NCBI GenBank assembly: GCA_964016885.1
Contig: OZ024742.1
Span: forward strand, 79,422,001 to 79,486,000
DNA from: Eledone cirrhosa
Lineage: Eukaryota
Length of the DNA stretch: 64,000 nucleotides
Reading direction: 5' to 3'
A model generated the notes under the pieces. It did no database searches, had not been told where the DNA came from, and saw only the letters and a program-made list of their open reading frames with translations. Each line of letters opens with the position of its first letter. Within the stretch, counting starts at the first letter, position 1. Of the stretch, positions 4,861 through 8,671 are shown one piece after another. Both the position numbers and the translations under genes were made by a program.

Positions 4861-5968
4861 AGAACGAAGCAAATCAAAAATAACATAAACTAAACTAAAA
4901 TATATAGAGAAACTGCAATGGAAGAAGTAAAGTGTGCTGTTCTGTACTGTAGACACAGTTATATAATTAGAGAACTATTCAAATTGTACAGCAATTTAAA
5001 TTGATTGGTGCAGTCGATTCTTTCTAATGAGATAGCTGGTGTGCTCTTTTTATTTATTTTTCGTAGTTAATTATTTATTTATTTGTTTATTCATTTGTTT
5101 ATCTGCATAGAAGTATATATACTATAGACATACACACATCTCTCATTTATACTCATTTATACTTATATGTATATATATGTATATATCCTAAACGGACGGT
5201 AGTCCGTTTAGTAATATTGTTGTGGTCGTGTTTTCGTTGGCAATCGTCTATTTACGACAGTACAGCGCGGCTCTACTTTATTTAACTGAGATAAAACTTA
5301 TATGAGCATGAACAGTAGATCATTACGCATCTTTTGGCTTAAAAATCTAGAAATTTGGTCCAGTGGGAAAAAGTTTATAATCAAAGTTTGCTGATAAATC
5401 TTGTGTTCAAGTGAGTGAGTAGTAAGCGTGACGCTAGGGGAGGTAATCCAGAAATGACAAACTTTTTTCGGCGGAACTCTTGTGATTGTGATTACGTTAG
5501 TCAAATGTAGTCAAATCGCCGAATCCCCTCCTCCTAATTGACTGCGTCATTTCTGAACGGCCCTACTTGCGTCAGTGTGAAACATTACTTCACTTTTCAC
5601 TGCTAAAATGCTGACTGTCTGTCTGACTGACACCTTTGTCGGACCGACAACTTTGTTCAAGCGGACAACTTTGTGTCACTGACACCTTTGTTCGTGCCGG
5701 CATCTCTGCGAAACACCGATGACAACAACCAGACCAAAATTTCACTTCATTCTTCATTCTTCTTCAAGACCGATCGCCGACCGATCGTATCGGTTGCTCT
5801 TCATATACCAGGTATTCAACAGATAGTTTGCACTTCTAGTATTATTAACAGTCGTGCGATTTTTTGTACCGATAGGTGCGAATAGTGCGCTATATTTTTG
5901 TATCGATAGGTGCGAATAGTGTACAATATTTTCTGAGATTTGCATCCACTAATTTCGCTTAATTAAAA

Positions 5969-6764
5969 ATGAGGTTTCGCGGCTTTTTGATCGGCTTATT
6001 CATTTTTTCCATGGCACGTAAATGGAGTATTTCAATTTCGAATCAAAACTTTTCACTAAAATCGGGCAATTGGACTGATCAAATTCACATTCATGCCAGT
6101 TTTTACAAATCCATAATTAGAAATGTGGCGAAATCGAATGACCAGAAGGTATAAAAATATTAATTCAAATGTATTTACTTATCATACCAACAAAAATACT
6201 TAGATATTTTGTATACCTGGGGCCCGTCAGGGCCAGGTAATGTTAATCGCCAACATTGTTATCTGTTGTCCTTTTGTGAAAGTATTGGTGGTTCATGTCG
6301 GCTCTAATGATCTGAATCCTCGTCGCACCGTTGGCACTACAAAGCTGTGCAAAGTAACACAATAATTTTTGCCCAAGTATTTTTTATTAATCATTTATTT
6401 GTAAATTAAGGACAAAGTGCCCATTCGAGGCACAACACCGGAAAAACAGGGGAAGAGTCTCTTTGCAAGGCTACAGAAAATAGCGGAAAAGCACCACTGT
6501 ACACCCATTTTCTACAGTGGTGTCATTCCACGTCCACAAAGTGTAATTGAAAATAAAAATGACTTGGGCAAGAGAAATTCTCGTTTGGAAAAGTTTAATT
6601 ACTGCATGAAAGAAATGATTCAAAAATTGAACTTGCCCAATCTTCACAACATTGAAAATTGGTCAAAATTTGACAAATCTGACTTCAAACCAGATATGAT
6701 TCATTTGAACAATGTTGGAAATCTTAAATTGACACAAATTTTTGCCAATGTTTTTGCCACCTGA
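5969..6764 (+). CDS. SGNH/GDSL-family hydrolase, spliced (exons ~5969-6148, 6204-6353, 6411-6764)
   Basis: Removing GT-AG introns 6149-6203 and 6354-6410 (both phase 0) joins SIIRNV (block I-like), CIPGAR (II), VHVGSND (III), SGVIPR and DMIHLN..G (V, DxxH). The start is uncertain. Confidence 0.7.
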
Positions 6765-6943
6765 TCCTTGTTCTATGGCTGACTGACTAATTTTGTGACT
6801 TAATAAAATGTCATCATACTGGTAATGCACAATGGTCATTTTTAAATTTAAATTTTATTAAATAGTTGTTGTTTGCATTGCCTTAAAATAGTAACAAGAA
6901 TGTACACATACTTTTTAAAATACATCATTATCAGTCAAATCAG

Positions 6944-7303
6944 TCAAATGTCACTAAAAGCCAGGTGGTCGATAACAACTTCTATAAGATTAGTTACATG
7001 CTCACACATTGGATCACCTCTCATCAATGGCATTGGGTGTCTGAGATAATCGTGGAGATAACTGATGAAGTCACAAATGAAGTGATGGTCTTCCAGTGTG
7101 AACAACTCCCTATATCCATTGATATATGTGATGGCTTCCAATTCATAGATGCATTTTATGAGGAATTCCATGCATCCGATTTTCAGTGATTCAATGGGCA
7201 TTTTATCAGAGATGATAAGGTATTTGACCACGTTTTGCTTTGTAAGTAAATTGGAGAGAATCACTGCAGTCAAAGTCATTTCTTTGCATCGGTTTTTGTC
7301 CAT
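6944..7303 (-). CDS. Hypothetical 119-aa protein, convergent with the SGNH gene
   Basis: Complex, protein-like ORF in AT-rich DNA. A GTAAGT...TTTTTAG candidate mini-intron lies immediately upstream (7305-7347). No recognisable motif. Confidence 0.4.
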   Translation of the reverse strand: MDKNRCKEMTLTAVILSNLLTKQNVVKYLIISDKMPIESLKIGCMEFLIKCIYELEAITYINGYRELFTLEDHHFICDFISYLHDYLRHPMPLMRGDPMCEHVTNLIEVVIDHLAFSDI

Positions 7304-7576
7304 TCTAAAAAGTTAAAATGATAAAGTATTACTACTATATAACTTACATCTATTGTTGTAACACCATTGAAATGCACAAGTTTCACCAATTCACTATTAT
7401 GCACTAATCATCTCAAATGCATTCATGATTTACTAGCTTTGTCATTAAGCCAGTTGCCTGAACTAGATTGCAATTATACTCAAAAGAACTTTAAAATGTC
7501 AATCACTTGTCAGTAATTCACTATGATCATTTAATTATTAGATAGTTGTTGCTTGCATTGCCTTAAAAAATAGTAG

Positions 7577-8670
7577 ACCAGATAGAAAAATGCGTACAGC
7601 AAAAAAAAGTAATATTGTTGAAATATAAACCTTTAAAAATACAGGACGAGAAACTAAAATAAAACTTTAAAAGAATAGGACAAGAAACTAAGATAAAACT
7701 TTAAAAGAATAGGACAAGAAACTAAGATAAAACTTTAAAGAATTGGACAAGAAATAAAAAATTTTACAATAATATTAGTGGCAACATTTTTTTATTCGTT
7801 TCCTGTGCTATGCCCCAGTATCTTCTTGATTAGTGCATAATAATTGTCATGCTCTCATTGTGCGTTGCCCCTGAGCGGTTGGTTCTGGTTGGGGTTGGTT
7901 GGCTGAGCAGTTCTGCTCCGTCGGAATGACCATTGCAAGAAGAATTGGCCGATGCAGCTGCAGGTCTCCTCCAAGAATGCACTTCTGGTCCCGCAACACC
8001 AGACGAAGATGGAGAAGACGACCGGGACAAGATGTCGACTCTGACCACCGACTACGGCACCTCCCTCAACCACCGGTCCTCCCTCCCTCTGTCCCGTCAT
8101 CCCTCCAGTCCTCCTGCTCCCCCTTCTGTACCAGAAAGCTGTGGAACGCATTCATCTGGACTGCCGGACTTGAACTCAAGGACAAGATGCATGGAGAAGA
8201 TGGACGGGTTGGTCAAGATCAAGGATGAGCGGGACGACAAGACCGTCCGCTGCTGCTCAAGATCTGTGCTCATGGGCCCATGGGTCCATTCACATTATGC
8301 ATGACACATGAGGCGTGTCGCCGAATGATGAAATAGGGGTATGGTTATGGCCCAATTGGTGTTCAAACCAGGATCAAATGATCCCCCCGGTCTGACGACG
8401 ACCTCTGAATGTGGTACCCAGAGCCTATGAATGTGGAACTCGATTTTTTACCAATAAAAATTTTGCCACTAATATTATTGTAACATTTTTTATTTCTTGT
8501 CCAATTCTTTAAAGTTTTATCTTAGTTTCTTGTCCTATTCTTTTAAAGTTTTATCTTAGTTTCTTGTCCTATTCTTTTAAAGTTTTATTTTAGTTTTTTG
8601 TCCTGTATTTTTAAAGGTTTATATTCCAACAATATTACTTTTTTTTTGCTGTACGCATTTTTCTATCTGG

Positions 8671-8671
<1 letters not shown>
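7577..8671. repeat. ~220-bp inverted repeats (7577-7796 / 8453-8671), each with ~4 copies of a 33-34-bp unit, around a GC-rich spacer
   Basis: accagatagaaaaatgcgtacagc... is the reverse complement of ...gctgtacgcatttttctatctggt. The right arm abuts (TA)n. Confidence 0.9.

Follow-up and report, generated by a model that had tools for sequence, protein, structure and literature searches.

Helitron-like rolling-circle transposons are told apart by their ends. HLE1 elements are defined by a 5′ TC, a 3′ end made up of a hairpin and CTRR, and insertion between A and T (written A/T, the slash marking the insertion point), and HLE2 elements by short inverted repeats and T/T insertion (PMC11417382). 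In canonical HLE2 the 5′ repeat lies 2–4 nucleotides (nt) from the end and the 3′ repeat 38–60 nt in, followed by a stem-loop (PMC4067079). In FoHeli3-5 of Fusarium oxysporum, termed ‘HLE2-reverse’, a 5′ hairpin precedes the left arm of a 13–16-bp repeat, whose 3′ arm lies about 20–40 bp inside, and a 3′ hairpin is lacking; self-insertion in opposite orientation has been described for FoHelis (PMC5148889). Here we describe an element with a comparable end layout, located at 5186–8670 (plus strand, 3485 nt) of a 64,000-nt stretch of Eledone cirrhosa DNA (assembly GCA_964016885.1, contig OZ024742.1, positions 79,422,001 to 79,486,000 of the forward strand; ‘the window’). We consider it to be a non-autonomous Helitron-like rolling-circle transposon which carries as cargo a predicted intron-bearing SGNH gene and a second, likely truncated gene represented by a convergent orphan open reading frame (ORF), a reading to which we give a probability of roughly 0.6.

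The likeness to FoHeli3-5 and the HLE2-reverse type lies in the 5′ hairpin standing before the left arm, the asymmetric repeat and the lack of a 3′ hairpin (PMC5148889; PMC11417382), and it extends to deletion derivatives and to composite ends formed by self-insertion (PMC5148889). The end sequences differ, however. FoHeli3-5 end in TGCCT and CTCCTGT, whereas the present element has TC and CTGG, resides in an animal host and in (TA)n, carries an intron-bearing SGNH gene and shows no transposase. With HLE1 it shares the 5′ TC, the 3′ CTRR and A/T insertion (PMC11417382), but not the GC-rich 3′ hairpin. The proto-Helentron of Phytophthora infestans, with TT and CTAG ends and A/T insertion, likewise combines a 5′ stem-loop with an inverted repeat of 12 nt, but hairpin and left repeat are 3.6 kb apart there and adjacent here (PMC4067079). 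Non-autonomous Helentrons of the HINE/DINE-1 type, including the oyster Cg_HINE, resemble the element in their subterminal inverted repeats of 11–15 bp, terminal stem-loop, internal tandem arrays and high copy number (PMC4067079; PMC7492417).

For the cargo, a precedent is given by texim of platyfish and other fish, an intron-bearing SGNH gene akin to the ORF1 esterases of long interspersed nuclear elements (LINEs) that was multiplied with a rolling-circle element (PMC4021074). We cite it as a precedent for the cargo: teximYa/b have 15 exons beside Helitron coding sequence, whereas the gene described here has 3 exons, 227 amino acids (aa), introns of 55–57 nt and a non-canonical block I, and lies in a non-autonomous element. 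The ORF1 protein of zebrafish ZfL2-1 (4C1B, PMC3905857) was the top match in the PDB by profile and by fold, with blocks II, III and V aligned. It differs in that identity in the fold match is about 15%, and the protein of the element lacks the long coiled-coil N-terminus, the downstream reverse transcriptase (RT) and the GD of block I, and is encoded with introns.

Ends, extent and copies of the element

The element is bounded on both sides by (TA)n arrays. Its left end reads A/TC, with the TC at 5186, and its right end CTGG/T, with the CTGG at 8667–8670; a strong hairpin lies next to the 5′ end (Table 1). The sequence directly following the hairpin, 5210–5222, matches the inverted sequence 8627–8639 exactly and also that at 7608–7620, a match reached by none of 2000 mononucleotide and none of 2000 dinucleotide shuffles. 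The two arms sit 24 and 31 nt inside the element ends, offsets which in neither orientation are those of canonical HLE2; a short (11–17 nt) subterminal inverted repeat as in HLE2 is present, with 13 bp. The window contains 272 edges of TA arrays. A TC comes next at 13 of them, CTRR stands in front of 4 and a strong hairpin occurs at 1; in each of these three groups one case belongs to the element. The A/T insertion was seen at one site and is trivial inside a TA array.

An initial annotation, made from the sequence alone, had the unit begin at 5620, but the limits of contig matches and the end structure place its start at 5186. The same annotation had set a microsatellite-free island apart from its surroundings. 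The stretch is real and measures 3904 nt, yet it comes second to one of 4103 nt elsewhere in the window, which is microsatellite-rich animal DNA crowded with LINE, Penelope-like and other repeat fragments. The right boundary is taken from the window copy, reads that fit both arms of the long inverted repeat being unplaceable.

The same palindrome with 10-bp arms but different loops was met in two metagenome loci, L001 (5001–5024) and L002 (351–374), where it probably represents unrelated operators or terminators. The two loci were rejected as relatives, the hairpin being the sole common sequence.

Of 15 listed public runs, 11 contain part of the stretch and 5 contain at least half of its words. 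Copies were analysed in four runs, namely X1 and X2 (organism A, study P1), X5 (organism B) and X6 (organism C; X5 and X6 forming study P2), and the weak runs X7–X11 were left out. All matching records are contigs, and since the tool warns that summed contig depth does not equal copy number, depth is read below as ‘multicopy’ only. The element was present in all four runs, with 0–6 letters differing from the window per 150–720 nt, and three differences (at 6821, at 6872 and an extra base after 6916) were common to all of them. The family is nearly identical across three organism labels and two studies.

In X1 a flank contig (4900–5157) had a depth of 4.45, and the contigs inside the SGNH gene and the orphan ORF had depths of 560–1260; X2, X5 and X6 showed zero cover in bin 4900–5040. 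The contigs of X2, X5 and X6 start to match at 5185, 5164 and 5180, respectively, and their flanks beyond these points differ. Inside the element, deletion joints were found from 5458 to 6582 in X1, from 5457 to 7165 in X2 and from 5458 to 7434 in X1, X5 and X6. The 6582 and 7165 joints represent deletions of the long form, because both cut within ORFs. Depth rises at the left end (3446 in bin 5323–5463 vs 678–1389 in bins spanning 5605–6591), and the depths on either side sum up, with 584 + 622 against 1247 in X1 and 12.6 + 29.3 against 44.6, and 40.5 in the spacer, in X2. Therefore, the right inverted-repeat cassette travels with the left end. Forms lacking the SGNH gene are as common as the long form, and contigs span both predicted introns unspliced, as DNA should.

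The element is thus multicopy, its ends are fixed and forms with internal deletions exist; that it is mobile in one way or another is very likely. The cassette had been proposed to belong to a mobile or viral element and not to be a host gene; the near-identical copies, the differing left flanks and the deletion series agree with cargo of a mobile element. An independent miniature inverted-repeat transposable element at 7578–8670 was considered and rejected, as depths track the left end and the inner arm shows no TA duplication. The left breakpoint at 5457–5458, common to all three deletion forms, is the end of a perfect 10-bp arm (5449–5458) that pairs with 5546–5555, and hairpin-induced slippage is a possible origin.

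The runs contain further variants. In X5 the depth was 593 over 7579–7719, where a loose end lies at 7644, and about 8 over the spacer; a far more abundant family, which has only the last ~70 nt of the 3′ end in common with the element, seems to be present in organism B. Over 5882–6060, X1, X2 and X6 contain a diverged subfamily in which several indels affect exon 1 and the sequence upstream of it, with a joint from 5922 to 5974. One extra base at 8125 in X1, X2 and X5 makes the reading frames of the spacer differ from those of the window copy.

The SGNH gene and the convergent reading frame

Removal of two GT-AG gaps yields a single frame of 227 aa from the ATG at 5969 to the stop at 6764. 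Two such gaps of 55–57 bp had been called before; they were found at 6149–6203 and 6354–6410, both in phase 0, splicing being predicted. The predicted introns contain 19% GC as compared to 38% in the exons (21/112 vs 263/684; Fisher p = 4e-5), and each has a branch-like TTAAT word, placed 43 or 23 nt ahead of the AG. Exons 2 and 3 share a frame even without splicing, the 19 codons between them including two TAA stops. Scored against the relative P0002 (see below), the read-through frame reached 59.3 bits, which increased to 63.2 upon removal of intron 2 and to 65.9 upon addition of exon 1. Among 21 GT-AG options enumerated for intron 1, the one chosen scored highest, though not by much (65.9 vs 63.2 bits for the next).

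The claim that SGNH motifs assemble only after intron removal stands in so far as the frame joins and blocks II, III and V are found, but block I contains no GDS. The block II Gly, the block III Asn and the Asp-x-x-His of block V are present (model residues 65, 93 and 205), and a candidate Ser for block I lies 15 residues before the Cys of the block II strand, as compared to 14 in P0002. Judged from these residues, esterase activity is plausible but uncertain.

A HMMER search of 1.84 billion representatives returned one relative, P0002 (E = 1.2e-7, 28% identity), an unnamed singleton with a canonical GDS encoded on a 2190-nt NCBI contig. A two-sequence profile made from the window protein and P0002 matched PDB entry 4C1B, the zebrafish ZfL2-1 ORF1 esterase, at E = 5.8e-10, and Foldseek using the SGNH model placed 4C1B first among many SGNH folds (E = 2e-4). 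Exon 3 alone matched Pfam Lipase_GDSL_3 with E = 0.0029, below the family cut-off, and its ESM Atlas neighbours were unnamed eukaryotic clusters and GDSL clusters. The word-based protein search with the read-through SGNH frame gave no match among 28 candidates, and a search for longer proteins gave only P0003, a LINE-ORF1-like SGNH protein of 530 aa (E = 2e-3). Scanning of viral contigs with the SGNH alignment produced no match. By sequence and model the cargo protein has an SGNH fold, closest in the PDB to a LINE ORF1 esterase; here the relative search, the profile and Foldseek all point the way of the original call. The esterase most likely stems from an SGNH lineage of the retroelement ORF1 type, its predicted function in the germ line being hydrolysis of acyl esters or binding to membrane lipids. 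Two of the three listed copy differences in its coding exons are synonymous, including both of those in exon 1, which is too few for inference.

Residues 19–34 of P0002 form a weak NADAR-like N-terminal stub (E = 0.18) ahead of the SGNH domain, hinting that P0002 may also be derived from a mobile element.

The convergent 119-aa ORF, already noticed in the initial annotation, is present at 7303–6944 on the minus strand. It probably represents the final exon of a gene that has lost its front part; an in-frame upstream exon via the nearest donor (7347) was tried and rejected, as it runs into a stop. ESM Atlas matches of 0.90–0.93 to BTB/BACK clusters, at a recognition of 2238 (under the 2300 mark), suggest that it is weakly BTB/BACK-like. 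Its single-sequence model had a predicted local distance difference test (pLDDT) value of 46 and fold matches to generic helices (best Z 5.9), and zero matches were obtained in Pfam, PDB sequence and fold searches. The word-based protein search gave no match among 2 candidates, and the viral-contig scan was also blank. All three listed copy differences in this ORF are non-synonymous, again too few for inference.

Table 1. Features of the element, in window coordinates
Feature	Position	Strand	Description
Whole element	5186..8670	+	Ends A/TC and CTGG/T; left end from contig match limits, right end from inverted-repeat end and TA-array start
5′-terminal DNA hairpin	5188..5211	+	Perfect 10-bp stem, 4-nt loop; −10.2 kcal/mol, z −4.5, 0/200 shuffles
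Left arm of 13-bp asymmetric subterminal inverted repeat	5210..5222	+	Directly 3′ of hairpin
Left module kept in all three deletion forms	5186..5458	+	Joined to 6582, 7165 or 7434
Short tandem repeats upstream of SGNH gene	5620..5932	.	17-nt x4 at 5620–5693; 34-nt x2 at 5861–5932
Predicted SGNH exon 1	5969..6148	+	60 codons, non-canonical block I
Predicted intron 1	6149..6203	+	55 nt, GT-AG, phase 0, 18% GC
Predicted exon 2	6204..6353	+	Blocks II (PGA) and III (GSND)
Predicted intron 2	6354..6410	+	57 nt, GT-AG, phase 0, two in-frame stops
Predicted exon 3	6411..6764	+	Block V (DxxH), then stop; AATAAA at 6802
Direct repeat copy 1	6804..6893	+	Between two convergent stops; polyA-like words on both strands
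Convergent 119-aa ORF	7303-6944	-	Starts 1 nt after pyrimidine-rich AG acceptor
Direct repeat copy 2	7492..7576	+	
Internal inverted copy of 3′ end	7578..7791	-	Includes 13-bp arm and 34-nt x3.9 array; own strand ends CTGG/T
Spacer between inverted-repeat arms	7792..8455	.	664 nt, 53% GC
3′ end	8456..8670	+	34-nt x3.9 array 8493–8622, 13-bp arm 8627–8639, weak 3-bp hairpin 8647–8657, CTGG

Assignment of the element and competing explanations

No ORF for an RT, polB, Rep, capsid, integrase or recombinase was found in 5186–8670. In Pfam searches covering the element and 104 window ORFs of at least 75 aa, no transposase, helicase, polB or capsid was found; for the rest of the window this blank is weak, as Pfam also missed the obvious Penelope-like RT frames there. 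The element is regarded as non-autonomous because no transposase, RT, polB or capsid gene is present in it. It is called Helitron-like, and not a member of a named clade, because one feature each of canonical HLE1 and HLE2 fails and the partner transposase is unseen. Rfam gave nothing at gathering score on the element, and scanning of viral contigs with the right-end motif gave no match.

Several points weigh against the Helitron-like assignment. The end tests were picked after inspection of the sequence, and the class is read from ends at one insertion site. The canonical HLE1 3′ hairpin, 16–20 nt long and about 11 nt before the 3′ end, is absent; the element has a 3-bp stem only, and 29 of 200 shuffles fold equally well. 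The T/T site of canonical HLE2 was not found either, the flanks being TA arrays. A Rep-helicase is missing from the element, and none was detected in the window by Pfam. Runs X1 and X2 possibly come from the window's own source, and the single left breakpoint of all deletion forms is a further such point. With regard to the cargo, block I is without the canonical GD of GDS, the profile match to 4C1B is carried mostly by P0002 (E = 0.47 for the window protein alone) and the mean pLDDT of the SGNH model is 58.8. Moreover, the two flanks have an interrupted 12–13-mer in common, which could be a target duplication; the 12-mer begins only 7 of the 272 array starts, yet 101 of 457 comparable empty A/T sites mimic such a duplication.

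This flanking sequence bears directly on a non-autonomous cut-and-paste DNA transposon (e.g. Zisupton/KDZ or hAT-like) mobilised by a DDE-type transposase, its duplication being hidden in the TA array. In its favour, both ends are needed in cis, and at some offsets the flank 12–13-mer can be read as a duplication of 8 bp. Zisupton is also said to contain introns and a stem-loop at one end; our literature search found no paper with those terms. Zisupton makes 8-bp target site duplications (PMC12730594), but here the 8-bp partitions place letters of the TA array inside the element and leave its ends mismatched, and apparent duplications occur at 22% of the comparable empty sites. The true termini have only CC/GG in common and the repeat is subterminal, so that the terminal inverted repeats of Zisupton/KDZ are lacking. 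The boundaries coincide exactly with TC, CTRR and A/T. After the internal inverted end comes TC and not TA, which weighs against a TA-duplicating transposon. Cut-and-paste transposition is considered unlikely.

A derivative of a Penelope-like retroelement, the lead followed by the initial annotation, would have been moved in trans by a Penelope-like RT/GIY-YIG enzyme, with the fold-back representing an inverted pseudo-long terminal repeat (pseudo-LTR). Penelope-like elements are abundant in the window. They are described to prefer (TA)n, to retain introns and to form inverted structures (PMC8557442), and some, including mollusc Neptune-like ones, carry SGNH esterases (PMC5408684); the (TA)n preference, intron retention and esterase cargo seen here are Penelope-like traits as well and count against our assignment. 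However, the inverted copy lies within the unit instead of flanking it at the 5′ end, the two arms end at one and the same base, and both lack the terminal extension by which the Penelope-like units of the window are marked. The derivatives have lost internal sequence and keep a fixed left end of high depth; they are not 5′ truncations, and there is zero sequence similarity to the Penelope-like elements of the window. The supposed resemblance to the Penelope-type ends elsewhere in the window is thus not upheld. The element contains no RT and GIY-YIG ORF in 5186–8670, as could also be said of a non-autonomous derivative, and Rfam matched no hammerhead ribozyme in it, which is likewise missing from Naiads (PMC8557442). 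Altogether, a Penelope-like origin appears improbable.

An endogenous DNA virus, a Maverick/Polinton fragment or a tandemly amplified host gene might account for the compact convergent genes and the very short introns, and the top Atlas cluster of the orphan ORF is half viral, its phylum being known for only 2 members. The viral element once suggested finds no counterpart in a polB, Rep, capsid or integrase ORF within the element, and the best viral fold match was a generic GDSL protein at 12% identity; against a host locus, the differing left flanks and the deletion series point to dispersed transposition. We hold these origins to be very unlikely. DIRS-type elements have an internal complementary region, resembling the internal complement of one end found here, and Ngaro elements carry SGNH ORFs. 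A tyrosine-recombinase derivative (Crypton-like or Ngaro/DIRS-like), integrating via a circle at short terminal direct repeats such as the 4–6-bp ones of Cryptons, which TA-rich flanks supply, is the least credible candidate, as there is no recombinase or RT ORF, Cryptons are described to be without terminal inverted repeats (PMC3212892) and the direct repeat found is internal, with copies only ~75–86% alike.

For the Helitron-like transposon, by analogy with the Helitron literature, an autonomous partner at another genomic site would supply a Rep-helicase to nick the 5′ TC beside the hairpin, and one strand would be copied up to the CTGG end, giving a circle. This circle would go into an A/T site, of which (TA)n arrays present many, and leave no target duplication. 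Because nothing but the ends would be required, copies that have been shortened would spread as DNA, and so would cargo with introns. As to the 215-bp fold-back, it is likely to be a second 3′ end acquired by opposite-orientation self-insertion or template switch, the centre of which was later deleted. The esterase would be an accessory gene of a larger parent element, as proposed for fish texim, and it would be dispensable for movement, since forms without it are equally common.

A bolder version, in which an active animal rolling-circle lineage with hybrid ends, combining TC, CTRR and A/T of HLE1 type with the 5′ hairpin and asymmetric repeat known from fungi and oomycetes, targets (TA)n and keeps a complete, expressed mini-intron LINE-ORF1-type esterase and a BTB/BACK-like gene as accessory genes of its own, is conceivable but doubtful. 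If true, SGNH esterases would, together with fish texim, represent a functional module that recurs in DNA transposons and RNA transposons alike; if the partner is ordinary and the gene silent, the element would be a cargo-bearing non-autonomous Helitron of a routine kind. Helitrons are described as capturing whole genes exceptionally rarely (PMC6431247). SGNH esterases have been met repeatedly in mobile elements, namely in LINEs, in LTR and Penelope-like elements and in the Helitrons of fish. The present family is young and multicopy, and with its compact esterase of three exons and its natural forms without the esterase it offers a test bed for expression, activity and selection in a DNA transposon, and the end layout would extend termini of the HLE2-reverse type to animals. 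Among the matches listed, the texim paper (PMC4021074) was the only one to combine Helitron and SGNH in title or abstract. Titles and the beginnings of abstracts contained no description of the element family, which Repbase, Dfam, the host repeat library or the HELIANO domain table S11 may already hold.

Internal repeats and neighbouring sequences

The long inverted repeat comprises 219 columns at 96.8% (7574–7791/8456–8674) and arises because the final 215 nt of the element are present a second time, internally and in inverted orientation; this copy has CTGG/T on its strand and then C. It had been reported that the island ends in inverted repeats of about 220 bp abutting (TA)n. The repeat is real and its right arm does abut the array, but its left arm is internal, and the arms, instead of forming the ends of a cassette, enclose the GC-rich spacer of 664 nt. 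ORFs of the spacer have no recognised product, with zero matches in Pfam and protein searches.

The direct repeat around the orphan ORF, previously estimated at about 60 bp, is present with a 50-nt core at 86% (6846–6893/7529–7575) and extends to about 90 nt (6804–6893/7492–7576). From its sequence it looks like a duplicated 3′ untranslated and polyA region rather than an LTR.

Other repeats are found in the remainder of the window. A Penelope-like element at 36953–42360 has flanking inverted repeats of ~1.2 kb at ~98%, one arm being extended, and contains an RT-like frame of 699 aa (39117–41213, minus strand) with a 119-aa continuation. Two copies of a non-coding fold-back unit (18699–19540 and 56292–56852) lie between TA arrays and show the Penelope-like end pattern, with an extension of ~80 nt on one arm. 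The right flank of the element is adjoined by a very high-copy repeat of ~290 nt (8782–9066), often present as tandem pairs, further copies of which lie at 16991–17723, 30847–31123, 34837–35446 and 44314–44647.

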